A stretch of 18,184 nucleotides of DNA from Candidatus Woesearchaeota archaeon (GCA_018303005.1 JAGVYY010000044.1:1-18184), one strand, 5' to 3'. Positions 1 to 14,792 are shown, counted from the first letter of the stretch. The notes: generated by a model from the letters alone, not told the origin. Translations and numbers: made by a program.

Positions 1-1111
1 TAGCTGTTTCTATCTCTTTCTTTTTATCATTTATATCTCTTCTTATTGCCTGCATTACATCATCAAATGCAGCATAGACATCTCCATCTTTTTCACTATG
101 AATATATTGTTTTGCTAATACGCCTGAATAAGGAACTGTAAATCTTAATGCATCTAAAAACATTGATGTTGTATCTATATTTTCATAACCTCTCTCTTCT
201 GCTATTATTTCTAATGCTTGAGATAAGCCAATAGAAGCTAAAACTGCTCTCTTTGATAAAGGCATTATCTTTGATTCATCTGTATCTTGTCTTATTTCAT
301 TGACATTAGGCCATAATTGATCAATGGCTCTTTTACTGTGTCTTCTTGTATTTTCTAAATAATCTAAACCCTTATGAAAATAAACACCTAAAACAGGTAA
401 AATAGAAGGTAATTCCCTATCTTTAAATGCTTGATGTAATACTAGAATATCATCTAAAGAATCTTTGCTTTTGTCTGGTAATGTAGCTCTCGGATCTTTT
501 TTACTGCCAAATATATGAACATCATCTTCTTCTGTAGTTATGTAATCAGGATCGTCTAATTTAATAATAATGTGCATTCTGTCTTTTAATGCCCTGTCTG
601 TATCTGAAATTCCAACATAAGCACCATCTCCAATATTACCGGATGCATAACCAACTACATAATCATTTTTTCCTAATCTAAAAACCTCACCATTATGAAC
701 TAATTTTCCATCAAAGAAATTGAAGAAATAATTCATCACAATTGGCGGGCATCTGTTTAATTCATCTACATAATAAAGATTTTTTCTTACATTTTCAGTT
801 AATTCAACTAAATCTCTTGTTGATGCTACTTTTCCTATATTACCTAAATTTAATTGCTTAAGTATTTCAGAAGGCTCAAAATCAGGCCTGCCTTCATTAT
901 AACAATAACTATCCCCAAAATAACCAGCTAAATCATTAGCTAATTGGGTTTTACCTTCTCCTGTTGCACCAACTAAATAAACATTTAATCCAGATGTTAA
1001 AGGAGCTGTAATAAGGATATCTCTCATTGAATATGGAATTCCGCCTATATCTACTGTTCTTGAATTTCTATAACTCCCTTGTTCTGATAATTTATCTATT
1101 TTATTTCTCAT
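1..1111 (-). CDS. MoxR-like AAA+ ATPase (5' part of gene; runs off left edge of window)
   Basis: Not in the ORF track because it is open to the window edge. Hand translation from ATG (cat at 1109-1111) gives MRNKIDKLSEQGSYRNSRTVDIGGIPYSMRDILITAPLTSGLNVYLVGATGEGKTQLANDL... Walker A is GATGEGKT, Walker B-like is YYVDELNRCPP, and ALKDRM matches the MoxR/AAA_5 AxxDRF motif. No stop occurs over about 370 codons in AT-rich DNA. Confidence 0.7.
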   Translation of the reverse strand, partial: MRNKIDKLSEQGSYRNSRTVDIGGIPYSMRDILITAPLTSGLNVYLVGATGEGKTQLANDLAGYFGDSYCYNEGRPDFEPSEILKQLNLGNIGKVASTRDLVELTENVRKNLYYVDELNRCPPIVMNYFFNFFDGKLVHNGEVFRLGKNDYVVGYASGNIGDGAYVGISDTDRALKDRMHIIIKLDDPDYITTEEDDVHIFGSKKDPRATLPDKSKDSLDDILVLHQAFKDRELPSILPVLGVYFHKGLDYLENTRRHSKRAIDQLWPNVNEIRQDTDESKIMPLSKRAVLASIGLSQALEIIAEERGYENIDTTSMFLDALRFTVPYSGVLAKQYIHSEKDGDVYAAFDDVMQAIRRDINDKKKEIETA

Positions 1112-1253: not shown

Positions 1254-1308
1254 TTTCTTATTCAATTTTATGTATAAATTACCACTTTATTATGGTAATA
1301 AATTATAT

Positions 1309-1345
1309 ATAAAGCTTTCTATTTTAACTATTTTATAGTAGATAT
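1309..1345 (-). promoter_or_regulatory. Conserved promoter/operator module, copy A (BRE/TATA plus tandem TAAAATAG repeats)
   Basis: The minus strand reads ATATCTACTATAAAATAGTTAAAATAGAAAGCTTTAT(ATA). This gives a purine-rich BRE-like AGAAAG, then a TTTATATA box, about 52 nt upstream of the ATG at 1253. It is 34/37 identical to 4924-4960. Confidence 0.5.
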
Positions 1346-1395
1346 AAATAAGCGAAAGATAATTAAAATAAAAATTCGAGTTATAAATCTAAAAA

Positions 1396-2769
1396 ATGGC
1401 TTATGAATTCAGATTTCCAGATGTTGGAGAAGGAATTACAGAAGGTAGTATAGTCAAATGGAGGGTTAAAGAAGGCTCTAACATAAAAAAAGACCAGGTA
1501 ATTGCTGAGATTGAAACAGACAAGGCTGTTGCTGAAATTCCAAGTCCTGTTGCAGGCAAGGTCTTAAAAATTAGATTCAAGGAAGGAGAAACCATAAAAG
1601 TTGGAGAGGTTTTGATAATAATAGATGATGGGTCTGCTGCAAATGCTGGAAAAAAAGAGACTGATGAAAGCAATGAATTTGTCAAGGAACAGCAAAAGAA
1701 CAATGCTAAAGACATTAAAGAGATAAAGACAACAGCAAAAGCCCAAAAAATTAAAAAATCTGTAGGTGTTGTTGGAGAATTAGAAGAAGACAATGGGAAA
1801 ACTCATTCTAGTATAAGCTCTAGGGTTGATATTGAAACACCTAAAATTAGAGTGACATTGTTTGTCAGAAAATTAGCCCAGGCATTAAATGTTGATATCT
1901 CAAAAATAAAGGGAACTGGAAACAACGGACTGATAACTGAAGATGATGTCAAGAATGCTGTCCAGCCAGGAAACTTGCAAGGTTCCATTGAAAGAAATAT
2001 CCCAGATGACCAAAATGCTGAACCTGATACAAACAAAGAGAAGACAAATGAAGTCAAACCAGTCAGAAAATACGACATGTTTGGATATATAGACAGGGTT
2101 CTGTTAAAAGGTATAAGAAAGATAACAGCAAAACACATGATTGAATCTGAGAATAAGGCTGTCCATGTCACACATATTGATGAGGCTGATATCAGCAACC
2201 TAGATAATATAAGAGAAAGAGAAAAAATAAATGCTGAGAAAAAAGGAACCAAACTGACATTTCTGCCATATGTCATGAAAGCCTGTGTTGATGCTCTGAA
2301 GAAGCATCCTTACCTGAATGCTTCAATTGATGAAGAGAACAATGACATTCTGCTGAAGAAGTATTATAACATTGGGTTTGCTGTTGACACAGAAGATGGG
2401 TTGATTGTACCTGTGATGAAAGGAGCTGACCAGAAAAATGTATTTGACATTGCAAAAGAAATCGGAAACCTAAGTGAACAAGCCAGAACGAGAAAGATAG
2501 ATTTATTTGACCTAAAGGGAGGGACATTCACAATAACCAACATAGGTTCTATTGGAGGATTATATGCCACCCCAATAATAAACTTCCCTGAATCTGCTAT
2601 CTTGGGATTAGGAAGAGCTTATGATAAGCCTGTTGTTGTAAATGGAAAGATCGAGATTAGAAAAGTATTACCTTTTTCACTGTCATTTGACCATAGGATT
2701 CTGGATGGAGCAGAGGCTGCAAGATTTGCCAATGACATGAAAAAAGTTTTAGAAGAAGCTAATTTTTAG
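1396..2769 (+). CDS. 2-oxoacid dehydrogenase complex E2 component (dihydrolipoamide acyltransferase)
   Basis: N-terminal lipoyl domain with IETDKA lipoyl-lysine motif. Peripheral-subunit-binding domain (VRKLAQALNVDISKIKGTGNNGLITEDDV). C-terminal catalytic domain with the DHRILDG active-site motif. Confidence 0.9.
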   Translation: MAYEFRFPDVGEGITEGSIVKWRVKEGSNIKKDQVIAEIETDKAVAEIPSPVAGKVLKIRFKEGETIKVGEVLIIIDDGSAANAGKKETDESNEFVKEQQKNNAKDIKEIKTTAKAQKIKKSVGVVGELEEDNGKTHSSISSRVDIETPKIRVTLFVRKLAQALNVDISKIKGTGNNGLITEDDVKNAVQPGNLQGSIERNIPDDQNAEPDTNKEKTNEVKPVRKYDMFGYIDRVLLKGIRKITAKHMIESENKAVHVTHIDEADISNLDNIREREKINAEKKGTKLTFLPYVMKACVDALKKHPYLNASIDEENNDILLKKYYNIGFAVDTEDGLIVPVMKGADQKNVFDIAKEIGNLSEQARTRKIDLFDLKGGTFTITNIGSIGGLYATPIINFPESAILGLGRAYDKPVVVNGKIEIRKVLPFSLSFDHRILDGAEAARFANDMKKVLEEANF

Positions 2770-3849
2770 GCTTTTATAAATTTTTATATACTTGTTTATT
2801 TCAATATTAGATATCTCACTTGGGAACATTTCTTTAAATTCTTTAGAAAATTTTCTTCTTAATCTATATGTATTACTGTATTTTGCATATCCTAACCATC
2901 CTTCAACGCTAGAATAAATTTTATCATAATCAATTCCATTATTATCAAATTTCTTTTTAAATATTAAAAGTTGTCTTTGCATTTTATTTATATTGCTTTT
3001 CTTCAACAATTTATGATAATAAAAAACTCTAAAACCCGGTAGACCTACTCCTTTATTTAAAAGGATAATCTTAGATTTATCAGGATGTAACTCTAATTTT
3101 ATTGCTTTTAATAATTCATTGATTTTATTTTTATAATCAAATAGAATTAATTTACTATAATCCAATATCACAAAATCATCAACATATCTTATATAATATT
3201 TTGCTCTTAATTCGTGTTTAACAAACCGATTGAGTTCATTTAAATAAATGTTAGCAAAGAACTGAGAAGTTAAATTCCCTAGAGGCATACCTTTATTTTT
3301 TTCTTTAAAATAATAGTTTTCTAAAATTATTTTTATTAACCATATTACTCTGTTATCTTTTATCTTTCTTTTAATAAGATTCAATAAAACTTCATGATTA
3401 ACAGTTTCAAAGTAATGTTTAATATCTGGTTTCAGTACATATACCTTCTTAGTATTATTATGACTTATTTTTCTTTTAAAACAATCAAATCTTTTTAAAG
3501 CTTTTAATGTTCCTTTATCTTTTCTATTAGCATAAGAATCATAAATAAAAGTTTTATCAAGTATTGGTTCTAGGATATTAACTAAAGCATGATGAACTAC
3601 CCGATCTCTAAATTTTGATTTGCTTATCTTTCTAGTTTTTGGATCTTTAATAATAAATGTTTTTAATGGATTTGGCTTGTAAGTATAAAATAATAATTCA
3701 TATCTTAATTGCAGCAAATTATCTTCTAAATTATTCTCAAATTCAAGAACATAATATTTTAGAGTTTTATGTTTTCTTGCTTTTTTAAAAGCTAGCTCTA
3801 AGTTTTCATAATTACATAGATCATTCCATAAATTTTTATAGGTCTTCAT
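2749..3849 (-). CDS. DGR-type reverse transcriptase
   Basis: YVDD catalytic box (YIRYVDDFVIL). Motif 4 is PLGNLTSQFFANIYL, matching the DGR hallmark [LIV]GxxxSQ rather than the group II intron QGxxxSP. The N-terminus (FENL..AFKKARKHK..., IKDPKTRKIS..FRDRVVHHAL) is typical of DGR RTs. A TR lies immediately upstream on the same strand. Confidence 0.85.
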   Translation of the reverse strand: MKTYKNLWNDLCNYENLELAFKKARKHKTLKYYVLEFENNLEDNLLQLRYELLFYTYKPNPLKTFIIKDPKTRKISKSKFRDRVVHHALVNILEPILDKTFIYDSYANRKDKGTLKALKRFDCFKRKISHNNTKKVYVLKPDIKHYFETVNHEVLLNLIKRKIKDNRVIWLIKIILENYYFKEKNKGMPLGNLTSQFFANIYLNELNRFVKHELRAKYYIRYVDDFVILDYSKLILFDYKNKINELLKAIKLELHPDKSKIILLNKGVGLPGFRVFYYHKLLKKSNINKMQRQLLIFKKKFDNNGIDYDKIYSSVEGWLGYAKYSNTYRLRRKFSKEFKEMFPSEISNIEINKYIKIYKSLKISFF

Positions 3850-3880
3850 TAATATTGGCTTGACATTTACCTGGATTATT

Positions 3881-3962
3881 CCAACGAAACGCCCATTGTT
3901 GTTGAGATTGTTGTTGTCATTAAGACCATTGTTGTAGTTGTTGCCAAGATACAGCAGGCGCC
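3881..3962 (-). repeat. DGR template repeat (TR), non-coding
   Basis: The minus strand reads CGCCTGCTG TAT CTT GGC AAC AAC TAC AAC AAT GGT CTT AAT GAC AAC AAC AAT CTC AAC AAC AAT GGG CGT TTC GTT GG. There are 11 AAY codons in the VR frame. It is homologous to 4284-4362 and sits 31 nt upstream of the RT start. Confidence 0.7.
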
Positions 3963-4153
3963 ACCGAGTAGCTCTTTCACTTTAAAAAGCACTGCTACTT
4001 TATCTTTCATTTCTTACTAGATGTTATAACTGTATTTCACAACCATCAATTAAAATGGTCATAGCAAAAGAGCATGTAACCCAGACAATACTCCAACTTT
4101 GCTAATTGAATAATGTCAAGGTAAAATAAAAAAGAAATAATTGATATAAAAGA

Positions 4154-4868
4154 TTATTGGTGTAATGATCTTAATCTTGCTTCGTATTCTTCTCTTGCTA
4201 TCTGAGGAACAAAATCCTCTGAAATCTTTAATATTTGCTCTAAGCAGGGGTGTAAAATTTTTTGCGGGACGTCATCGCGTACCCCGACGAAACGCCCATT
4301 ATTGTTGATGCAGTTGATGCCATCAAGGCCATTAATATCGTAGATGAGGTACACTAGGCGTCCTAATGGCTGTTCACGTAAATCATCAGAATGCCAAATT
4401 CCTATTTGATCACCATAAACTTCTTCATGTCTTTCCAAATATCTTTGAGCTCTTTCTTCTCCACCTAAAAAAGGTATTGTTTGTGGATGTTTTAGAGCTC
4501 TTTTGACAGGAATTATTCCAGATTTAGAGTTCTTTAATTCTTCATAATCTACTACAAAAACTAATTTATTTCCTTGTTGATCTTTAATCCCTTCAAGATC
4601 AACTAATCTTTGAAATTCTTCCTGTGGTATTATCCCAGCATAATTTACTAATCTGTTTTCTTCAATAGTTTTCCTTATATTTCCATGATCAGAAAAATAA
4701 TTATCAACATGACCATAAACAACAACAGGATTTCCTTGCCTTGTTATTCCAGTTGCTCTAATGCTTGGAGATGTAAACCAGGTTTGCCATATTCTTGAAC
4801 CTTTATCAGAAAAATTCTTTTCCTTCTAAATACCTTGTTACAGGAACTTTTATTATTTCGTTTGACAT
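4154..4868 (-). pseudogene. DGR target (variable) protein gene, interrupted by a 1-nt frameshift in an A4/T5 run near 4806-4822
   Basis: ATG at 4868 gives MSNEIIKVPVTRYLEGKEFF then a stop at 4806-4808. The adjacent frame is open with no stop from 4825 to 4154: KEKNFSDKGSRIWQTWFTSPSIRATGITRQGNPVVVYGHVDNYF...LVYLIYDINGLDGINCINNNGRFVGVRDD...RSLHQ. The ORF track only reports the last 94 aa, from a TTG at 4438. Removing one T from the TTTTT run restores a 237-aa ORF. Confidence 0.6.
4284..4362 (-). repeat. DGR variable repeat (VR) inside the target gene
   Basis: Hand alignment to the TR uses a +403 offset on the plus strand. The 3' block is identical (AATGGGCGTTTCGT). TR AAY codons are replaced by ATC, TAC, GAT, ATT, GGC, TGC and others, encoding YLIYDINGLDGINCINNNGRFVG. 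Confidence 0.6.
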
Positions 4869-4923
4869 TTTTGATCTTCTTTATTTTCTAAATCTTGTTA
4901 TAATATTAGATATTTGCTTATTT

Positions 4924-4960
4924 ATAAAACTTTCTATTTTTACTATTTTAGAGTAGATAT
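4924..4960 (-). promoter_or_regulatory. Conserved promoter/operator module, copy B (upstream of DGR target gene)
   Basis: The minus strand reads ATATCTACTCTAAAATAGTAAAAATAGAAAGTTTTAT(AAA). It is 34/37 identical to 1309-1345. The BRE/TATA-like end lies about 53 nt upstream of the ATG at 4868. It overlaps the last codons of the HAD gene. Confidence 0.5.
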
Positions 4961-5591: not shown

Positions 5592-5868
5592 GTGGTAGGC
5601 TAGGTTGGGAATTTGGCCCTATTCCTGTTGCCGTAAACGGGCCTCATGACGGAACTGAAGCTTGGGAGGCGGTATATTGGTATGTTATCTGCCTTGATCC
5701 AGACAAAGATCTTCTGCCCTATTTGGCTGGTATTTTTGGAAACCCAGTCAGGCTAGGAATAGAGCAGCTGTAACCATTGGTATTGGCGCTTATAGGATTA
5801 CAGAAGGGAGAAAGGATCAAGATAACAAATAACATATCTTTATACCCACTTCCTTGCAAGCCTACTTT
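5592..5868 (+). ncRNA. Signal recognition particle RNA (archaeal 7S / SRP RNA)
   Basis: An ORF-free island of about 280 nt, GC-richer than its surroundings. The 5' GGUAGGCUAGGUUGGGAAUUUGGCCCUAUUCCUGUUGCCGUAAACGGGCC resembles the archaeal Alu-domain start (GGCUAGGC.GGG...CCUGUAACCGGAAACC). The helix-8 motif is CAGUCAGGCUA-GGAA-UAGAGCAGC, with a GGAA tetraloop at 5756-5759. The 5' GGUAGGC pairs with the 3' GCCUAC (5860-5865). UAUGUUAUCUGCCUUGAUCC pairs with GGAUCAAGAUAACAAAUAACAUA as a long helix 5. A U-tract follows. Confidence 0.8.
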
Positions 5869-7331: not shown

Positions 7332-7502
7332 ATGGCTGAACTACTTGTTGTAAGAAGCAAGCTGAAAGATGTTGCTAAAGACATGAATGTTGCTGGAGAT
7401 TTTGCAGAAGCTCTAAGCAAAGAGGTTGAAAGGCTTGTAAAAAGGGCATGTGACAGAGCAAAAGAGAACGGAAGAAGAACTGTTCAATCCAGAGATATAT
7501 AA
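7332..7502 (+). CDS. Small histone-fold-like DNA-binding protein (DUF1931-like), 56 aa
   Basis: Below the ORF-track cutoff. Hand translation gives MAELLVVRSKLKDVAKDMNVAGDFAEALSKEVERLVKRACDRAKENGRRTVQSRDI. It is preceded by a GGAGG Shine-Dalgarno 7 nt upstream and a TTTATATA box at about 7247. The pattern (VSGDF..AL...V..L...A..RAK.NGRKTV..RD) matches short archaeal DUF1931/histone-fold proteins from memory. Confidence 0.55.
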   Translation: MAELLVVRSKLKDVAKDMNVAGDFAEALSKEVERLVKRACDRAKENGRRTVQSRDI

Positions 7503-7544
7503 TTATAGATAAGTATTTATTTAACTTATTTCTTTTTATTTTTT

Positions 7545-7934
7545 ATGTCAAAAAGTAAAGGTAGTCGTGTTGAAAGAGAACTTGTGCACATGTTTTTCGA
7601 TCAATCCCATATAGCTGTGAGGATTGCCGGATCGGGCAGTACACCATTACTGGCTTCTGATGTTCTTGCTGGTGTTAATGGAAGGGTTTTGGCTATTGAG
7701 TGTAAATCTGGAAAAGATAAAAGATATATCACAAAAGAACAAATTAATGAGTTAAAGGAGTTTTCTAAAAAATTTGGCGCTGAATCATGGTTAGGTGTTA
7801 GGTTTGACAGAGAAGGATGGTATTTTTTAAGTCTTGAAGATTTGGATAAAAGCAGTACTGGAAATAATTTCGTTGTTGATGTTGATTTGGCTAAGAGGAA
7901 GGGGTTAAATTTTGGTGAATTAATAAGAGATTAA
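7545..7934 (+). CDS. hjc: Holliday junction resolvase Hjc
   Basis: SKGSRVERELVHMF...VRIAGSGS...DVLAG...LAIECKS matches the archaeal Hjc nuclease motifs (KG..ERE, AGSG, D...E.K). Size is 129 aa. Confidence 0.85.
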   Translation: MSKSKGSRVERELVHMFFDQSHIAVRIAGSGSTPLLASDVLAGVNGRVLAIECKSGKDKRYITKEQINELKEFSKKFGAESWLGVRFDREGWYFLSLEDLDKSSTGNNFVVDVDLAKRKGLNFGELIRD

Positions 7935-8668
7935 TCTGTTGCTACATTATTCCATAAATATTTATGATATAATTTATAATTTTCTGCAAGTTCTTTACTT
8001 TCGATAAGAAACCCGAATAAGTCCTTTCCATATAAGAAGTTTACAACTTTATCTCCATAAATACATATTACAGTTGGATTACCACTGAATTCTTTAGGCA
8101 AGAATTTTACTTGTTCAAGTTGCATTGGTTTTGTTTCTTTTTTTAATTCATATCTGAGTATATTAAACCATTTTACTTTTAATTTTATTCTTCTTCTATT
8201 CCAATTATTAAAAAAATAAGGAAATCTTTTTGGAACATATCTCCCAGAACCAATCCAATAAGCTTCTTTATAATTTAACGTGTCTTCCCATATGGCTTTT
8301 ATTCCTTCAATGTTCCTATACACCTCTGCATTAAGTAGTGATTTTTTAAATTTAAACCTTTTTGTGATTTCTGGGATAATTTTCTCAAGTTCTTTTTTTG
8401 TTTTTTCTAAGTTATACTTCTTTTCTTCAATATATCCTATAATTTTTCTTGGATGTGTTATTTGAAAAGATCTCTTTTTATTTTCAGTTATATAAGTTAT
8501 TAGACCTCTTTCAATTAATTTATTTAGAATATCATAAATATTTCTTCTTTCAATGCCTGTTCTTTCATGTATCTTATTTATTGGTGATAATCCCAAATCT
8601 AACAAGGCTGTGTATATTTTTACTTCTCCTTCTGATAAGCCAATCTTTCTAAGTAATTCCAGCTGCAT
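7931..8668 (-). CDS. TrmB-family transcriptional regulator
   Basis: N-terminal winged HTH: LLRKIGLSEGEVKIYTALLDLGLSPINKIHERTGIERRNIYDILNKLIERGLI. A TrmB-like C-terminal domain follows. The start is set to the ATG at 8668 (MQLELL...) rather than the track GTG at 8719. The stop overlaps the hjc stop convergently. Confidence 0.8.
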   Translation of the reverse strand: MQLELLRKIGLSEGEVKIYTALLDLGLSPINKIHERTGIERRNIYDILNKLIERGLITYITENKKRSFQITHPRKIIGYIEEKKYNLEKTKKELEKIIPEITKRFKFKKSLLNAEVYRNIEGIKAIWEDTLNYKEAYWIGSGRYVPKRFPYFFNNWNRRRIKLKVKWFNILRYELKKETKPMQLEQVKFLPKEFSGNPTVICIYGDKVVNFLYGKDLFGFLIESKELAENYKLYHKYLWNNVATD

Positions 8669-8754
8669 CAAGATAACAAAGAGGATATGTTTATAAATAT
8701 GGTGTTCTTGCAATACCACAATACTTTATATATATTAACTATTCTAAAGTGGTT

Positions 8755-9147
8755 ATGGATAATAATTCAATTTTTGAGGCTGGAATAAGAATAGGTTGGA
8801 TAGAGAGTTTCTATAAAACTGTAACAGAAAAAAGTACAGGATTTTTAATAAAAGCAAGAGAAAAACAATTTAACCCTATTGGTGCAGTGTTACTCTCCGG
8901 AGATTACGGAAGCCCAGAAAAGTTTATGCATAAAGCTGAAGCCTATAAATATCAATTGTTACATGCATATCAAGAATATCACTCTATTAAACAAGAATTC
9001 TCTAACTTAGCTTATTTTAATAATGAGGCGGCTAACACGTTTAGATTAGAATTAGAACATCAAAACGGTTTATCTACCATTGATGAAGCAATCTCTGTGT
9101 TAAATGGATATCTAGAAACTGAACGTTCTAGCCAGAAGCGTGTTTAA
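8755..9147 (+). CDS. Hypothetical protein (about 130 aa), first gene of a two-gene operon divergent from TrmB
   Basis: A TTTATATATA box at 8725-8734 lies about 25 nt before the ATG at 8755, suggesting a leaderless transcript. The stop overlaps the next start (TAATG). No family recognised. Confidence 0.5.
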   Translation: MDNNSIFEAGIRIGWIESFYKTVTEKSTGFLIKAREKQFNPIGAVLLSGDYGSPEKFMHKAEAYKYQLLHAYQEYHSIKQEFSNLAYFNNEAANTFRLELEHQNGLSTIDEAISVLNGYLETERSSQKRV

Positions 9148-9920
9148 TGATTATGAATTATAACCTTGTAAAAAAAATCAGTACTTATATTTTAAGTTTT
9201 GTCTTAACTTTTACAGTTCCAACTATCTTACATGCTGATGATATATTAAAAGGACCTATACCTAAGAAATCAAAATTTCAGCTAGATACCAGATTTACTT
9301 ATACAAGAAATGAGAAAGGTATTACAACTTTAACTAATAATATAATAGGAAAATACTGGGAAGGAGATAGATTAGGCAAATGGGTTTTTATTAATGTACC
9401 GTATAAGTCCGTTATAAATGATCAAGAGTCAAGCAATGGTTTCGGTGACATAACTGTTGGTGTTGGTCCTGGAGGAAGAATAAATAACTTACATATATTA
9501 TCTTATTTTGCCTTAACCTTTCCTACTGGAGATTCTAATGAAAGACCTGCTCTAGGCAATGGTAGATATGATAAAAAAATTGGAGTTGTTCATACATTTT
9601 TGACTAATGATAAAGGATTTGAAATTGATACAACTGTGGAATATAATCTTACAGGTGTAAATAACAAAGATATTAATCCTCCGAATGAGTTTTATTTTGG
9701 TTTTATATTTGGTGGTAAAATTAATGAGCGAATAAGATTTGCAACCGGACTTACAGATTTAGTTAAAGCAAATGGAGATTTTTTATTAAATTCTAGATCT
9801 GTTCTAAGATATACATTTTCACCTAAAATACATCTTGAAGCTTTGATTGATCATGGAATTCAAAACCATAATGTTTTAAAATATGATGGACTAAGTTTAT
9901 TTTTAAGGTATAATCTTTAA
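9147..9920 (+). CDS. Secreted beta-rich protein resembling bacterial MetA-pathway/outer-membrane transporter beta-barrels
   Basis: N-terminal signal peptide (KKISTYILSFVLTFTVPTILHA). Alternating hydrophobic/polar strands throughout. Motifs NGFGDITVGVG, FPTGD and LGNGRYD are reminiscent of the Phenol_MetA_deg-type barrel family. This is assigned from memory, not a search. Confidence 0.4.
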   Translation: MIMNYNLVKKISTYILSFVLTFTVPTILHADDILKGPIPKKSKFQLDTRFTYTRNEKGITTLTNNIIGKYWEGDRLGKWVFINVPYKSVINDQESSNGFGDITVGVGPGGRINNLHILSYFALTFPTGDSNERPALGNGRYDKKIGVVHTFLTNDKGFEIDTTVEYNLTGVNNKDINPPNEFYFGFIFGGKINERIRFATGLTDLVKANGDFLLNSRSVLRYTFSPKIHLEALIDHGIQNHNVLKYDGLSLFLRYNL

Positions 9921-9959
9921 TTTAGAAAATCTTTTATTCTACAAAATTATATTATTTTA

Positions 9960-10055
9960 ATGTTTAAATCGGCATTATATTATTTTTTTATTATTTTATT
10001 TTCTTTAAATGTTAGCGATTTAATTGTTATTAATGAAATTATGTATAAAAAATAA
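9960..10055 (+). pseudogene. Possible remnant of the N-terminus of a lamin-tail-domain (LTD) type secreted protein
   Basis: A 31-codon ORF: MFKSALYYFFIILFSLNVSDLIVINEIMYKK, then a stop. A signal peptide followed by (L/V)(I/V)INEIMY is the characteristic start of LTD surface proteins, but the frame ends immediately. Confidence 0.25.
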
Positions 10056-10117
10056 CATTTAGGATTTTACTTTCTGCACAAAGAAAGATTTATAATAGAT
10101 TCTCTTCTGAAACTATT

Positions 10118-10576
10118 GTGGCTGATGAAGGTAAAGTACAAAAGATACTGATTAGGGCTGTGATTGAGATAGCTGGCTTTCCTAAAGAACATATTGAAGC
10201 GACAATGAAAAAATTAATGGAGAATATCAAGGAAAACTTCAATCTGGATAAATATGACATCTTTGAAGCTAATCAGATAGACAAGGTATGGAGCACTTTC
10301 TCTGAAGTCGAGATTTACTTTGATGGTGTTGACAAGGTTATAGGATTTTGCATAGATTATCTGCCAAGCTCTGTTGAGATCCTAGAACCAAAAAATGTCA
10401 ACATTGAAAACTTCAAATTTGCTGATGTAATAAATGATTTAATTGGAAAACTGCACCAATATGAAACTGTTATAAGAAGCTTAAGGGCAAGCAACATCAG
10501 AATGAAGAAAAAGATTGAGGATGAAGGTAAAACTGGAGAGACCGAAACTCAAGATGATACTTCTGAGAGCGATTAA
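10118..10576 (+). CDS. Hypothetical protein with acidic C-terminal tail (152 aa)
   Basis: GTG start about 25 nt after an ATTTATAA box at about 10089, suggesting a leaderless transcript. Clean ORF. No family recognised. Confidence 0.5.
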   Translation: MADEGKVQKILIRAVIEIAGFPKEHIEATMKKLMENIKENFNLDKYDIFEANQIDKVWSTFSEVEIYFDGVDKVIGFCIDYLPSSVEILEPKNVNIENFKFADVINDLIGKLHQYETVIRSLRASNIRMKKKIEDEGKTGETETQDDTSESD

Positions 10577-10883
10577 TCTTGACGAATTTAGAGAATTTCT
10601 TGTATTGAATAATGTCGGTATAGAAAACCTGAACATGAAACAGGATTTTTTATTTAATGTATATAAGAATACTATCTGGGTTGACAACGAAGTCGGCTTG
10701 AAAAGATATAATATCTACAGGATAGCTGACAGCGACAGATCAGTATATTCGGGCATTGTCTTAGGGTTAAAAATCGGGTTCTTCAACAAGGATTTTCAGG
10801 AGAATCCTAATGACATTGGAAAATATTATTGTATTAATCCTGGTGTTAAGGATGTCAAAATTGCATATATTCCAAAAAAATAA
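10554..10883 (+). CDS. Hypothetical protein (about 109 aa; track start 10515 also possible)
   Basis: The ORF overlaps the 3' end of the previous gene. The ATG at 10554 (MILLRAINLDEFREF...) gives a 23-nt overlap, against 62 nt for the start at 10515. No family recognised. Confidence 0.4.
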   Translation: MILLRAINLDEFREFLVLNNVGIENLNMKQDFLFNVYKNTIWVDNEVGLKRYNIYRIADSDRSVYSGIVLGLKIGFFNKDFQENPNDIGKYYCINPGVKDVKIAYIPKK

Positions 10884-10884
10884 G

Positions 10885-11124
10885 TTAGCTACACTTTTCC
10901 AGGCATATTGAGCAGTCATACTTCTTTAGTATTCTGCATGTTTTAATCTCATTGCCTTCATTGTACTGGCAACAAACCTTTAAGTCTGTTTTGTTAAATT
11001 CTATATCTATTGTGTCTTGCAATTCTGCACCGACAGCCCTTGTTTCATTCCTATTTTTGATCAAAATCAAAGATGTTGCAACCAACAATACTATTACTGC
11101 AAGTGCCCATGTTGATGATTTCAT
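10885..11124 (-). CDS. Small secreted or membrane-anchored Cys-rich protein (79 aa, 6 Cys)
   Basis: N-terminal hydrophobic segment WALAVIVLLVATSLILI, then TRAVGA, then a C-terminal CC...C...C..C...C pattern. The start lies 1 nt after the stop of the signal peptidase gene. Confidence 0.5.
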   Translation of the reverse strand: MKSSTWALAVIVLLVATSLILIKNRNETRAVGAELQDTIDIEFNKTDLKVCCQYNEGNEIKTCRILKKYDCSICLEKCS

Positions 11125-11125
11125 T

Positions 11126-11629
11126 TTAGTATATTACTCCTACCAATACGCTCCTTACCCGGCTGAATCTAACTTTTTCAGGATCAGGTTCATTGTTGTT
11201 GTCACCTTTTACAGTATAGTATAAACCTTTTTCATCATTTTTAATACTTATAACCCTATGGATTATTATCTCATTTGTCAGAGTTGATCTGTAGGATATT
11301 ATATCTCCGACCTGGATATCTTCAGCAGATACAGGAGTTATCTGAATTGCATTTGACCCTTTACCGAAAAACGGCTCTTCTGAATGAGTATCTGCAAAAG
11401 ATGCGTATTTGGCATCCTTTATTTGAATAACAACCTTATCAGGATATATTTTTATCTGCTCTTCGCTTATCCTGTCTTTTGGATATGGCTTTGCCCCATA
11501 TACAAATTTGTCAATAACATCATTGAATGGTTTTTCCAAGGTCCTATTATTTGCCTTGTCTATTGCAAGTGCTATGAACAACATTATAACAGCAAATATG
11601 AACACAAACCGTAGTATAATCTTGAACAT
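11126..11629 (-). CDS. S26-family signal peptidase I (Sec11/SipW-like)
   Basis: N-terminal TM segment. Ser motif HSEEP is a variant of SMEP. Other motifs: VGDIISY, IIHRVI (catalytic His) and VKGDNNNEPD (GDNN..D box typical of ER/archaeal-type SPases). Confidence 0.65.
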   Translation of the reverse strand: MFKIILRFVFIFAVIMLFIALAIDKANNRTLEKPFNDVIDKFVYGAKPYPKDRISEEQIKIYPDKVVIQIKDAKYASFADTHSEEPFFGKGSNAIQITPVSAEDIQVGDIISYRSTLTNEIIIHRVISIKNDEKGLYYTVKGDNNNEPDPEKVRFSRVRSVLVGVIY

Positions 11630-11630
11630 C

Positions 11631-13817
11631 TTATTCCCTATTAAGGCCTTCGATAAATTTGTCTAGATTATTGTTTTTCGGGCCTTTTGCGAGAAAGAAT
11701 ACTGCTAATGCTATTGCCAGCAAAATTATAAAAGGAATCAACCATATAAGATATGTCTTTTTGCTTTTTGTTATGCCTGGAGATGAACTGCCTGTAAAAT
11801 TTTCTTTGTTTGTATCTTGCTCTACGATATTATTTTTTTCTGACCCTGCTGTCTTTTGCCTGTCATACAAATCTTGATCTTCAGTGAATGTCATTTTTAT
11901 CGGCAGTTTTGTTTCAGTGAACTCATCAGACATGATTATTAGTTCTCCATCATATATCCCTGTAATGTTCTTGTTTTTATTTATTATCAATCTCTGATGC
12001 TTTATCTCATCCTTACTTATTGAAGTAAACCTGTCTTTCTCGAGTTCTATTACTTCATTTAGGTTTCCTGTTAGCATAAATGTAATGTTGTTTAATTGAT
12101 AATCCCATGTGTTTGTTAGATTAAATTCCTTTATAGCCTGATCTTTCTTTAAGAATATATCATCTATATATTTCCTTTTGCTTAATATAGCTATGGAGTT
12201 TTTTGGCGGCTGGAGCAATGGAGTTATTATATTGTACTGTGTTTTATTGCTCTTATTACTCTGCTCGGTCATGTTTGTCATGTTTACTGTGTTGGATGTT
12301 ATAACAGGTATTACATATGAGTGGTTGCTGTATCTTATTTCTATATTAAAATCTCCCTGATGTTTTGGTATTGCAATTTCAAAGATATTTATGTCTGTCA
12401 GCGTGAATCTTTGAGGCATATCTGTAAAATTTGGCGCAACAACATCGACTGCAACAGGAAGGTCATCCCGGCTCTTCATTATCAGCTTAAATGAATCTTT
12501 TTTATACACTACTCCGGGAAATATTGATATTACTGGATTTTTCCTCTCTGCATTCAGAAAGAAATATAATATCAGCGACGATGTCAAAGGATCTTTTGTT
12601 GTCTGTCTCTCTAAAAAATCCAGTGATTTCTTATACTGTTCTGTATCTTTCAAAGATAATGTCGCGAATATTGACGAATAGACATCAATGTTTTTCTGGC
12701 CTGAAGATGTTTCATATGGCCAGGCATTTGAGTCTGTTATCACATTGGCTAATAACCAGTCTTTAGCATAAGGGTTATTTTTTATTAAATACAACAAGGC
12801 CTGATCAATTGTTTTTTTATCAGATGGATTCTTTTCAAACCAGTCTGTTCTTACTTCCTGGCCAATCTTCTGTAAGACATAGGTTGAGATGCCTGTTGCT
12901 TCGTAATCGCAAGATGATCTGTATTCTTTGCCGAAGCATCCAGTATTGTCTATCATTATGCTAATGTTTTTTATTTCTGCATTATAAGTTATTCTCTCAT
13001 TTCCGAGAAATGAATGTCTTAAAATGACTTTTGTGCTCTGCTGGCAGCTGATGGCCATATCTGGAGATTCAATATCAATTGTCTGCTTACCAGTTACATG
13101 ATAATCTTTATTGTTAACTGCACATTGCGAATTTCCTGAATAAAGGCTTAATGTCCATTTCCCAATGTTGAAGTTGTTCTGGGCATCGAGCAGATAATTT
13201 CTTGTTTTTAATGTCTCTTTGTTAAATTCTTTTAAAGCCAATAATGCAAATGCGGTGTCTTTGATATTGCAATTGTTTTTTGGATAGCATCCTTCTTCAT
13301 CCTGGTTGTTCATTAAATAGTTCAATGCTCTCTGTGCATTCTCGGGATAGACATTTTTCAATGCTAAAGATGCGATGGCTGTTTCACTTATTGTATTAAA
13401 GCCTCCATCTGTATTCTGTTTTGATAACAGGAAATAAAAACCTGAATTAATTTTATTTATATAAATCTCTTTTATTTCAGTCTTTTGTTTTAAGAATCCA
13501 TCTTCAACATACTGGATATTCTTTATCTGAAATTTATACTTATCTTTTTCAACATCCGGGATATTGAAATAAACAAAATAATGCTGGTCTGATAATTTTT
13601 CTATAAAGTATTGCACTGGAATTTCAGTGCTTTCATTTGTTAATTTTAAGTTTTGAATTGAAATCTGGTTTAATGGTTTTATATCTGTTATAATTTCAAC
13701 CTGGACTGTTTCTTTTATTGAGTATGTATCTCTTGGTGTTGTTATCGTTATAGAAGATGCATGAACGCTTATTGTTATAAACAGTAAGAATAAAATATAT
13801 AATAAACTCTTTTTCAT
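11631..13817 (-). CDS. Large surface protein with prenyltransferase/squalene-oxidase-like (alpha/alpha-toroid) repeats and a C-terminal TM anchor
   Basis: Signal peptide MKKSLLYILFLLFITISVHA. Repeats QNTDGGFNTISETAIASLAL / NQDEEGCYPKN..IKDTAFALLAL. C-terminal TM segment YLIWLIPFIILLAIALAVFFLA followed by basic residues. Confidence 0.7.
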   Translation of the reverse strand: MKKSLLYILFLLFITISVHASSITITTPRDTYSIKETVQVEIITDIKPLNQISIQNLKLTNESTEIPVQYFIEKLSDQHYFVYFNIPDVEKDKYKFQIKNIQYVEDGFLKQKTEIKEIYINKINSGFYFLLSKQNTDGGFNTISETAIASLALKNVYPENAQRALNYLMNNQDEEGCYPKNNCNIKDTAFALLALKEFNKETLKTRNYLLDAQNNFNIGKWTLSLYSGNSQCAVNNKDYHVTGKQTIDIESPDMAISCQQSTKVILRHSFLGNERITYNAEIKNISIMIDNTGCFGKEYRSSCDYEATGISTYVLQKIGQEVRTDWFEKNPSDKKTIDQALLYLIKNNPYAKDWLLANVITDSNAWPYETSSGQKNIDVYSSIFATLSLKDTEQYKKSLDFLERQTTKDPLTSSLILYFFLNAERKNPVISIFPGVVYKKDSFKLIMKSRDDLPVAVDVVAPNFTDMPQRFTLTDINIFEIAIPKHQGDFNIEIRYSNHSYVIPVITSNTVNMTNMTEQSNKSNKTQYNIITPLLQPPKNSIAILSKRKYIDDIFLKKDQAIKEFNLTNTWDYQLNNITFMLTGNLNEVIELEKDRFTSISKDEIKHQRLIINKNKNITGIYDGELIIMSDEFTETKLPIKMTFTEDQDLYDRQKTAGSEKNNIVEQDTNKENFTGSSSPGITKSKKTYLIWLIPFIILLAIALAVFFLAKGPKNNNLDKFIEGLNRE

Positions 13818-13946: not shown

Positions 13947-14792
13947 GGTGATTGAAGCATTTTAGCACCAAAAAAGCTTATAATTAAGCTAAACTACGAC
14001 GATTGTAATGAAAAAAGAGTTGTCAGACATGTATTTTTTAGGTAGAAAATGCATAATTTGTAATAGATATGGATTGTACAAATTAAAGAATAGAAGAAGG
14101 GTTAAGTGTAAACACTGCAAGAAGTATTATTCACTAAAAAGGTTAAGAAGAGATCTAGATATTTTATATTACTTCTATCTTGAAGTCTCTGCTAGAAAAA
14201 CAGCTAAAGAAATGGAATTGGATTATGGAGTAGTTCATAGGAGGTTTATGGAATTTAGAAAGCTTATTGCAAACTACTGTAATGAACAAGCAATAAGGTT
14301 AAATGGAAAGATTGAGTTAGATGAAACTTACTTTGGTGGAAAGAGAAAGGGAAAAAGAGGTAGAGGTTCTAAGAATAAAGCTATTGCCTTTGGAATTCTC
14401 GAGAGAAAAGGCAAGGTTTACACTGTTATCATAGAAAATGTTTCAGCAGAAACATTAATGCGGGAAATACAAAATAAAACTAGGAAAGGCTCTGTATTTT
14501 ATACAGATGGTTTTAAGAGTTATGCTAGTTTAAGGCAATATGGAAAGCATGATACTATTGATTATGATTATAGTTATGTAAAAGGTAAAACACATATTAA
14601 TGGAATAGAAGGCTTTTGGAGTTACTCTAAAGAAAGGTTCCATAAGTATCATGGCATTAACAAAAAGAACTATCCATTGTATCTAAAAGAAATGGAATTT
14701 AGGTTTAATAACAGAAAGGAAAATGTTTTAAAGTTATTAGTTGATATATGTATAAGGAGGCGTAGAATTAGTGCCAAATTGCACTAATCACC
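13947..14792 (+). mobile_element. IS1595-family insertion sequence (about 846 bp)
   Basis: Imperfect terminal inverted repeats: GGTGATTGAAGCATTTTAGCAC (13947-13968) and the reverse complement of GTGCCAAATTGCACTAATCACC (14771-14792), about 17/22 matching. They bracket a single transposase ORF whose stop lies inside the right IR. Confidence 0.7.
14008..14787 (+). CDS. IS1595-family (ISXO2-like DDE) transposase
   Basis: N-terminal zinc ribbon (CIIC...CKHC). IELDETYFGG, KRGRG, KAIAFGILER.GKVY, YTDGFKSY and HINGIEGFWSYSKERF..YHGI....YPLYLKEMEFRFNNR are hallmark IS1595 DDE motifs. Confidence 0.85.
   Translation: MKKELSDMYFLGRKCIICNRYGLYKLKNRRRVKCKHCKKYYSLKRLRRDLDILYYFYLEVSARKTAKEMELDYGVVHRRFMEFRKLIANYCNEQAIRLNGKIELDETYFGGKRKGKRGRGSKNKAIAFGILERKGKVYTVIIENVSAETLMREIQNKTRKGSVFYTDGFKSYASLRQYGKHDTIDYDYSYVKGKTHINGIEGFWSYSKERFHKYHGINKKNYPLYLKEMEFRFNNRKENVLKLLVDICIRRRRISAKLH

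Follow-up and report, generated by a model that had tools for sequence, protein, structure and literature searches.

Diversity-generating retroelements (DGRs) of the AvpA type, as described in two papers on Nanoarchaeota and Woesearchaeota (PMC4372165, PMC5006420), are compact cassettes of target gene, template repeat (TR) and reverse transcriptase (RT) gene, with several DGRs per genome, and the locus presented here resembles them in both respects. Among archaeal regulators, TrmB-family proteins have operators of the forms TACT-N3-AGTA and TACT-N7-8-GAGTA, and their sites activate when located upstream of the TFB-recognition element (BRE) and TATA box and repress when located at the start site (PMC4158304). 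The locus is an 18,184-nt stretch of DNA from a Candidatus Woesearchaeota archaeon (GCA_018303005.1, JAGVYY010000044.1:1-18184), referred to as the window, in which two near-identical copies of a promoter-like module (copy A and copy B) precede genes on the minus strand. To our knowledge, nothing is known about the regulation or expression of archaeal DGR target genes.

The two copies are read here, with a probability of about 0.6, as portable archaeal promoters that would give DGR-target units a common input, with co-regulation via one trans-acting factor. A preliminary description of the window had suggested co-regulation of a DGR target gene with an AbrB-like/AAA+ gene pair; co-regulation is indeed the best supported of the readings considered below, but the module is not specific to this gene pair.

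Sequence and geometry of the module

Comparison of the 37-mers at 1309-1345 and 4924-4960 gave 34/37 identical positions in the same orientation, as the preliminary description had it, and a repeat search of the window extended this direct repeat to 43 nt (1303-1345 versus 4918-4960), of which 39 are identical (91%), again in the same orientation. On the minus strand, copy A reads ATATCTACTATAAAATAGTTAAAATAGAAAGCTTTATATATAA from 1345 to 1303 and copy B reads ATATCTACTCTAAAATAGTAAAAATAGAAAGTTTTATAAATAA from 4960 to 4918, and either copy has the layout CTACT-N-TAAAATAGT-N-AAAATAG followed by a BRE of the form AAAGN and a TATA box of the form TTTATAWA (Table 1). Outside the repeats, identity on either side is at background level (46-55%, compared with 49% ± 5% for random 50-mers), and the 27-nt consensus has only two sites in the window at ≤3 mismatches, the number expected from 200 dinucleotide shuffles being 0.00.

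Both copies have the archaeal promoter arrangement of a TTTAWA-type box with a purine-rich BRE directly 5′ of it, and AGAAAG-N stands directly 5′ of both TATA boxes, TTTATATA (1313-1306) and TTTATAAA (4928-4921). The other sequence features reported earlier were recovered as well, including the tandem TAAAATAG / AAAAATAG units within the module, the ACTAT-AAA-ATAGT dyad, which is perfect in copy A only, the purine-rich BRE plus TTTATA box in both copies, and the ATTACCA-N8-TGGTAAT inverted repeat at 1278-1299. The distance from the 37-mer to the ATG, previously given as 52-53 nt, is in fact 55 nt and equal in both copies, and the distance from the start of the TATA box to the ATG is 60 nt in copy A and copy B alike. 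A HAD gene lies upstream of copy B, and its stop codon (TAA, 4950-4948) falls inside the upstream element, the module supplying the last HAD codons.

The earlier statement that the window has no third copy holds for full copies, but a weak operator-like third site was found (8731-8762), which has 3 mismatches in the 21-mer core and no TATA box at the module offset. It sits between divergent genes, the TrmB-family gene and the gene at 8755-9147, and may be a chance resemblance. No additional module copies were present within 10 kb past the right end of the window or 2.8 kb past its left end, and an Rfam scan gave no family overlapping either module copy.

Table 1. Positions of the module copies, their sequence elements and the surrounding features. 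Coordinates refer to the window unless the sister contig L072 is named.
Feature	Coordinates	Strand	Basis or remarks
Module copy A	1303-1345	-	Repeat search, consensus scan
Copy A upstream element CTACTATAAAATAGTTAAAATAG, with TACT-N7-AGTT	1341-1319	-	Sequence
Copy A BRE, AAAGC	1318-1314	-	Sequence
Copy A TATA box TTTATATA	1313-1306	-	Sequence
Inverted repeat ATTACCA-N8-TGGTAAT, perfect	1278-1299	-	+14 to +35 from TATA start
50-aa protein, first gene of copy-A operon	1101-1253 (ATG 1253) or to 1265 (TTG, 54 aa)	-	No family assignment
AAA_5 (MoxR-type) ATPase, second gene of copy-A operon	1-1111	-	Pfam; overlaps the small gene and leaves the window
Second DGR, targets T2a/T2b	7423-12153 (L072)		Beyond left end of window
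Second RT-16 RNA	10886-11040 (L072)		Rfam; immediately 5′ of TR2
Module copy B	4918-4960	-	Repeat search, consensus scan
Copy B upstream element CTACTCTAAAATAGTAAAAATAG, with TACT-N7-AGTA	4956-4934	-	Sequence
Copy B BRE, AAAGT	4933-4929	-	Sequence
Copy B TATA box TTTATAAA	4928-4921	-	Sequence
DGR-1 target T1	4154-4868	-	AvpA-family variable protein, predicted C-type-lectin fold
Variable repeat VR1, inside T1	4284-4346	-	Repeat search
RT-16 structured RNA (Rfam RF03019), full length	3963-4121	-	Just 5′ of TR1
Template repeat TR1	3881-3943	-	Repeat search
DGR-1 reverse transcriptase	2749-3849	-	RVT_1 (Pfam)
E2 (2-oxoacid dehydrogenase acyltransferase) gene	1396-2769	+	Between the two DGR units
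Signal recognition particle (SRP) RNA promoter ATAAAAATAC-TAAAAATAC-AAAAT-ATTTAAAA	5540-5592	+	17/23 to module consensus, counted by hand and also listed in the consensus scoring
Archaeal SRP RNA gene	5593-5867	+	134 bits
TrmB-domain gene	7931-8668	-	Pfam; 3 kb from copy B
Weak operator-like third site CACT-N7-AGTT	8731-8762	-	18/23 to consensus
IS1595-family (ISXO2-like) transposase gene	14008-14787	+	Pfam; sole transposase, ~9 kb away

The DGR-target units behind the two copies

Both module copies head DGR-target units, because the operon behind copy A carries the targets T2a and T2b of a second DGR. Regarding copy B, the unit behind it (DGR-1) comprises the RVT_1 gene together with TR1 and the variable repeat (VR) VR1, that is, the RT gene and TR/VR pair by which a DGR is recognized. 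The predicted structure of the target protein T1 (predicted local distance difference test, pLDDT, 92.7) matched PDB entry 5IOO_A in Foldseek with an E value of 9e-29, a TM-score of 0.94 and 58% identity, and T1 belongs to the AvpA family, whose members are variable proteins of archaeal DGRs, and has a modelled C-type-lectin fold.

In the window, the T1 frame from ATG 4868 stops after 20 codons. Relative to the sister contigs L062 and L072, the gene has a 92-nt deletion at 4811/4810 (715 versus 807 nt) that is flanked by imperfect AAGAATT...CTGATA direct repeats, and T1 of the sister contigs is intact, encoding 268 aa from the ATG equivalent to 4868. Because five other independent assemblies break within the 92-nt stretch missing from the window T1, the deletion appears to be a population polymorphism and not a single error. 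Downstream of T1, a plain TTTTATAT box at 4151-4144 is located 30 nt 5′ of the 5′ end of the RT-16 RNA model, which suggests that the TR-RT RNA has a separate promoter lacking the upstream element. A T-rich run is also present 3′ of the T1 stop codon.

The copy-A operon starts with the gene of a 50-aa protein, for which the alternative TTG start agrees with the 48-nt TATA-to-start spacing of the orthologues. This protein is 74-100% identical across 283 homologues, versus 45-70% for the neighbouring ATPase. Its earlier label as AbrB-like lacks Pfam support and was not confirmed: there was no Pfam match even at E ≤ 5, the AlphaFold2 (AF2) monomer model (pLDDT 64) was unusable, and the best PDB match in a profile search was only E = 1.4 to 2glw, over a GxxxxVIIPxxL-like stretch.

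Past AAA_5, the operon continues in the sister contig L072 with T2a, a 587-aa protein, T2b, RT-16, TR2 and RT2, and its genes overlap or lie ≤13 nt apart. T2a and T2b are 264 aa each and 97% identical, lie on either side of the 587-aa gene and both have a VR; VR2a and VR2b match TR2 in L072 with mismatches mostly at TR adenines (A-to-N), and RT2 is 67% identical in DNA to the first RT. The same architecture of two VRs plus TR is also found in two other genomes (L091 and L092), and in L092 an insertion sequence (IS) element takes the position expected for the RT gene. A DTSGS motif in the 587-aa protein resembles, by eye, a metal ion-dependent adhesion site (MIDAS), and the protein has no Pfam match.

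The perfect inverted repeat of copy A overlies the predicted transcription start and is absent from copy B, and orthologous promoters have at its position a different dyad, TACTAAAGAGTA or CACTAAATAGTA (TACT-N4-AGTA-type). Folded as an RNA hairpin the repeat has -7.9 kcal/mol (z = -3.0); an RNA-hairpin role is disfavoured, and a DNA operator is likelier, because the predicted start falls inside the repeat, which is thus probably an operon-specific operator, serving as a repressor site.

The module in other genomes

A scan of one genome per species detected the element only in the Woesearchaeota metagenome-assembled genome (MAG) JACOZO01, on two contigs that represent one locus. A metagenome scan with the 21-mer ACTNTAAAATAGTNAAAATAG gave 57 loci, many of which are chance matches in AT-rich DNA. 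Regarding the position of the promoter, TTTAWA lies at offset 26 exactly, counted from the beginning of the 21-mer, in 13 distinct instances, two in the window and 11 elsewhere (11 distinct outside contigs counted from both scans, the two of JACOZO01 included), while the remaining metagenome loci have the 21-mer without TTTAWA at this offset. In the 11 outside contigs, which are groundwater and Woesearchaeota contigs, AAAGN usually precedes TTTAWA, just as it does in copies A and B. All 13 instances have a start codon on the same strand 24-73 nt from the TATA start, 8 of them at 24-37 nt, a distance that fits leaderless geometry. The G+C content of the module contigs ranges from 27% to 57%. 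Scores against the 26-nt consensus (maximum 23) were bimodal, with modules at 20-23 and ~388,000 background positions at ≤19.

AAAGN-TTTAWA is the ordinary BRE/TATA of related genomes (35 sites in 194 kb), and the form preceded by ATAG is confined to the module-family promoters, where it is found in 13/13. Abundance per genome is low, with 2 copies in ~32 kb of the source scaffold and a single locus in all of the JACOZO01 MAG, and a module this infrequent is not the generic promoter of these genomes. The genes behind exact modules in other contigs encode a response regulator, a ribbon-helix-helix (RHH) protein, a pyridoxal phosphate (PLP)-dependent enzyme followed by SRP54, secreted proteins and proteins of no assigned function. 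According to the preliminary description, occurrence of the motif before many unrelated genes would make it a generic strong promoter; exact copies do precede at least nine unrelated genes in other contigs, which removes the proposed specificity for the DGR-target/AAA+ pair and points towards a general module, but its rarity per genome does not fit a generic one. Matches of the 21-mer in viral contigs were chance matches only, with no TATA box, and no T1 relatives were found in viral contigs.

Two further sites were recorded. An exact module with a TATA box at the right offset occurs at 763-783 (minus strand) of L004, a contig of 57% G+C and an outlier among the AT-rich loci, where it precedes the gene of a secreted protein in which Pfam gave a sub-threshold match to a thrombospondin type-3-like repeat; a leucyl-tRNA synthetase (LeuRS) encoded on this contig looks bacterial-type by eye. 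In L078, a module-like site (11459-11492, plus strand; 19/23) followed by CTTAAAGA is located ~1.2 kb 3′ of the DGR RT gene of that genome.

Promoters of orthologous units

More than 140 homologues of T1 were found, all of them in DPANN archaea, and the promoters of T1 homologues were compared in eight loci. The T1 gene of L088 (57% protein identity) has the module with 1 mismatch, that of L081 has it with 3 mismatches and the TATA box at the same offset, and those of L078, L084 and L089 have variants that retain AAATAG-AAAGN-TTTATA together with an ACT-N4-AGT dyad. Between the window and L088 the nucleotide homology starts at the 5′ edge of the module, and identity is 39/43 (91%) in the module, 68% in the T1 coding sequence and at background in the flanks; on this alignment the module is better conserved than the coding sequence of the target.

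Regarding the second unit, the operon-2 promoters of L091 and L092 are ...GTAGTAACAGATAGAAAGGTTTATATA-type variants, and the operon-2 promoter of L091 is ~31/33 identical, counted by hand, to the T1 promoter of L078. In other lineages, too, variants of the element are common to T1-type and operon-2-type units, and no other observation argues as strongly for a functional basis of the sharing. The common control of the two units proposed in the preliminary description is strengthened by these promoters, as orthologous units elsewhere have diverged versions of the module.

Proposed regulation and points against it

In the proposed mechanism, TBP would bind TTTATAWA and TFB would contact the purine-rich BRE, (ATAG)AAAGN, and RNA polymerase would initiate near 1283 and 4898, ~30 nt beyond the first T of each TATA box, the spacing between box and 5′ end of RT-16 (30 nt) being used as internal calibration for these predicted starts. 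The 21-23-nt upstream element adjoins the BRE at a fixed distance of 5 nt from the TATA box and would span ~-37 to -58 from the predicted start. A dimeric winged-helix factor, possibly of the TrmB family, would bind this element and activate both DGR-target units, an activator being proposed because the TrmB-type dyad sits upstream of BRE/TATA. Copy B would drive the AvpA-type target of DGR-1 and copy A would drive the DGR-2 operon (50-aa protein, MoxR ATPase, T2a, 587-aa protein and T2b), while the retroelement RNAs (RT-16, TR and RT) would be expressed from their own plain TATA promoters and the inverted repeat over the copy-A start would add operon-specific repression. The repeat, its fixed geometry, its recurrence elsewhere, the genes behind it and its conservation are observed; that these units are transcribed, that the effect is activating and not repressing, and which factor binds are inferred from the sequence.

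The TACT-N7-AGTA dyad is present in copy B (TACT-CTAAAAT-AGTA), in L088 and in most exact modules, and copy A has TACT-ATAAAAT-AGTT; similar dyads are located 3′ of the TATA box in L042, L091 and L092. Taken by itself, the TACT/AGT dyad pattern shows no enrichment in the window, with 3 occurrences versus 2.15 expected. Regarding the binding factor, the upstream region of the TrmB-domain gene of the window holds the weak operator-like site CACT-N7-AGTT, and a TrmB gene adjoins the T1 homologue in L087 and is located 5.5 kb from it in L081. Linkage was considered as a pointer to the window TrmB as regulator, and this was rejected, since the TrmB genes near T1 homologues are not orthologues of the window gene and the linkage lends it no support. 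The TrmB-family protein of the window is thus a weak candidate for the binding factor.

Several observations weigh against common control by one dedicated factor. Orthologous promoters do not agree in dyad spacing, which is N4 in some and N7 in others, and because A, T and C all occur at position 4 of the element the longer ACTAT/ATAGT dyad is not conserved; the invariance of the other element positions is partly forced by the search pattern. No clear module precedes the T1 homologues in L087 and L090, nor that in L084, where it is present as a variant at most. The genes behind exact modules are functionally unrelated, leaving a regulon that has no obvious theme and is not DGR-specific. The TrmB genes of L081 and L087 belong to a different subfamily from the window TrmB, their linkage is inconsistent, and no TrmB gene was found in the other module loci. 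Finally, the SRP RNA promoter of the window has a similar tandem A-tract, shifted by 1 nt and without the TACT/AGT half-sites.

Alternative explanations

This last promoter is also the starting point of the alternative that survives best, namely that the element is an UP-like determinant of promoter strength, in which phased A-tracts bend the DNA or contact TBP, TFB or RNA polymerase with no specific regulator involved, and in which two AAAATAG units, spaced 9 nt apart and rigidly phased with the TATA box, give constitutively high expression. The SRP RNA promoter resembles the module at 17/23 consensus positions and has a tandem AAAAATAC repeat in register with its TATA box, and because of this resemblance phased A-tracts beside the BRE may be widespread among the strong promoters of this lineage. 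The rigid spacing to the TATA box in 13/13 instances and the heterogeneity of the downstream genes, including the PLP-enzyme/SRP54 pair, would likewise suit a strength element. Against such an element stand the rarity and the exactness of the module: there are two copies in ~32 kb and one locus in a whole MAG, the element was not seen among 22 other AAAGN-TTTAWA promoters, and the G and C positions (ACT, AGT, AG), which form the dyad, are present in 13/13 instances in an A/T context. Degenerate variants would also be expected, yet copies with 1-4 mismatches (≤4) and the TATA box at the same offset were absent from the ~400 kb of loci searched. A pure strength element is for these reasons possible and doubtful, and the regulated promoter is preferred to it.

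Recombination was raised in the preliminary description, which considered the two copies as att-like or recombination scars bracketing a 3.6-kb segment that might be present or absent as a unit. In its broader form, the module copies would be sites or homology patches for the insertion or exchange of gene cassettes, including whole DGR cassettes, and the two direct repeats of the window would be junctions left by cassette exchange. The position of the module at breaks in homology speaks for this, as such breaks occur at the module in the pairs L017/L088, L001/L002, L052/L084 and L088/window. L017 and L088 are 88% identical over 2.5 kb until ~11 nt past the TATA box, after which they have different genes; L001 and L002 form an assembly bubble in JACOZO01, with two alternative genes between the TATA box and a convergent TFS stop codon; behind Cdc48, L084 has T1 and L052 another gene; and the L088/window pair begins its homology at the module, as described above. 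In addition, the T1 cassette with its module is found in different neighbourhoods across genomes, and copy B overlaps the HAD stop codon.

The scar interpretation is nevertheless not supported by synteny, since the segment of E2 plus DGR-1 shows no present/absent polymorphism: all 17 contigs carrying the small gene, which come from several assemblies, keep E2 adjacent, and DGR-1 as well where they are long enough. In none of the locus tables does an integrase or recombinase adjoin the module, the window contains no tRNA, and the repeats bracket a resident gene, E2, on the opposite strand. A constrained promoter beside fast-changing DNA would give the same boundaries without a site-specific mechanism. 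The two window repeats merely mark where two cassettes on the same strand begin, a resident gene lying in between, and a true recombination function of the module is unlikely.

Details of the exchanged genes were as follows. Behind the same promoter, L017 has an unrelated protein (2466-3071) where L088 has an AvpA-type T1 homologue (2920-3798). The module genes of L017 and L052, both of which occupy the T1 slot, are weakly related to each other (27% identity, E 1e-3), and their assignment to the T1 family was rejected (hhalign probability <1%). In the JACOZO01 bubble, the same module and the convergent TFS gene flank alternative inserts (L001 100-636 versus L002 2685-3062), which are a 174-aa gene of no assigned function or a response-regulator fragment without its own stop codon.

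A combined form is also conceivable, and improbable on present evidence, in which the module would act as a regulated promoter and, at the same time, as the fixed anchor of a slot for gene exchange, with genes swapped directly behind the TATA box in Woesearchaeota-like archaea. Such swaps, which would include whole AvpA-type DGR cassettes, might proceed by recombination between dispersed module copies or by a site-specific activity. If true, this would be an integron-like expression platform without recognizable integrase that couples cassette replacement and DGR hypermutation. That swapped genes coincide with the module gives a hint of how genomes as small as these may exchange genes at one expression site.

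A resemblance by chance between two AT-rich promoters can practically be dismissed: a genome of ~30% G+C and the BRE/TATA consensus by itself yield some similarity, but the shuffles expect no matches at all and the element recurs exactly and with fixed geometry in 11 other contigs, two of them at 45% G+C and one at 57%.

Host and gene context

The window has a G+C content of ~30% and, besides the SRP RNA gene, contains the archaeal markers Hjc, a TrmB-family protein and Cdc6/Orc1 (Pfam). Homologues of its proteins are labelled Woesearchaeota, Pacearchaeota or Nanoarchaeia, and groundwater assemblies from aquifers contain identical or near-identical DNA, among them scaffolds 33.6 kb and 85 kb long. 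The E2 gene and the RT gene overlap at their 3′ ends by 21 nt, and genes encoding E1 or E3 were not detected within the window.

Comparison with known systems

The module is a new candidate cis-regulatory motif of a familiar kind, an archaeal promoter with a putative upstream operator. It provides a defined cis-element of ~40 nt that two DGRs of one genome share at their target units and that is conserved before orthologues, which makes the regulation of archaeal DGR targets testable and gives a first lead to it, and it can serve as a search handle for co-regulated genes in uncultivated DPANN archaea. The plain promoters before the RT-16, TR and RT RNAs suggest that target expression and mutagenesis are controlled separately. 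Regarding the literature, the word 'promoter' is absent from Paul et al. 2015 (PMC4372165) and Handa et al. 2016 (PMC5006420). In the parts of both that were searched, neither the module common to the promoters nor the operon-2 layout nor the RT-16 leader was found, and literature searches for a DPANN promoter motif gave nothing relevant.

With the integron platform of Pc promoter plus attI, archaeal integrons included, the module shares a fixed promoter followed by interchangeable genes; unlike in integrons, no integrase was seen and there is a single gene per slot, and the likeness is positional only. The sites of the TBP/TFB-recruiting activators Ptr2 (Methanocaldococcus jannaschii) and TFB-RF1 (Pyrococcus furiosus), cited in PMC4158304, abut the BRE at a fixed distance as the module element does, but the sequence of the module is unrelated to them and its role in activation is putative.

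In sequence the module resembles TrmB-family operators of Euryarchaeota, through the TACT/AGTA dyad (P. furiosus / Thermococcus litoralis TrmB, TACT-N3-AGTA; Halobacterium salinarum VNG1451C, TACT-N7-8-GAGTA; PMC4158304), a further comparator of the TrmB type being the Thermococcales glycolytic motif (TGM) of TrmBL1/Tgr (PMC4158304). The module differs in its longer element (21-23 nt) with a second AAAATAG unit between dyad and BRE, and in its setting, a DPANN lineage in which the putatively bound promoters precede DGR targets and assorted genes and not those of sugar metabolism. As in TrmB systems, the site is located just 5′ of BRE/TATA, the position of an activator, some promoters have dyads at the start site, the position of a repressor, and one motif is common to several promoters, as in TrmB regulons.

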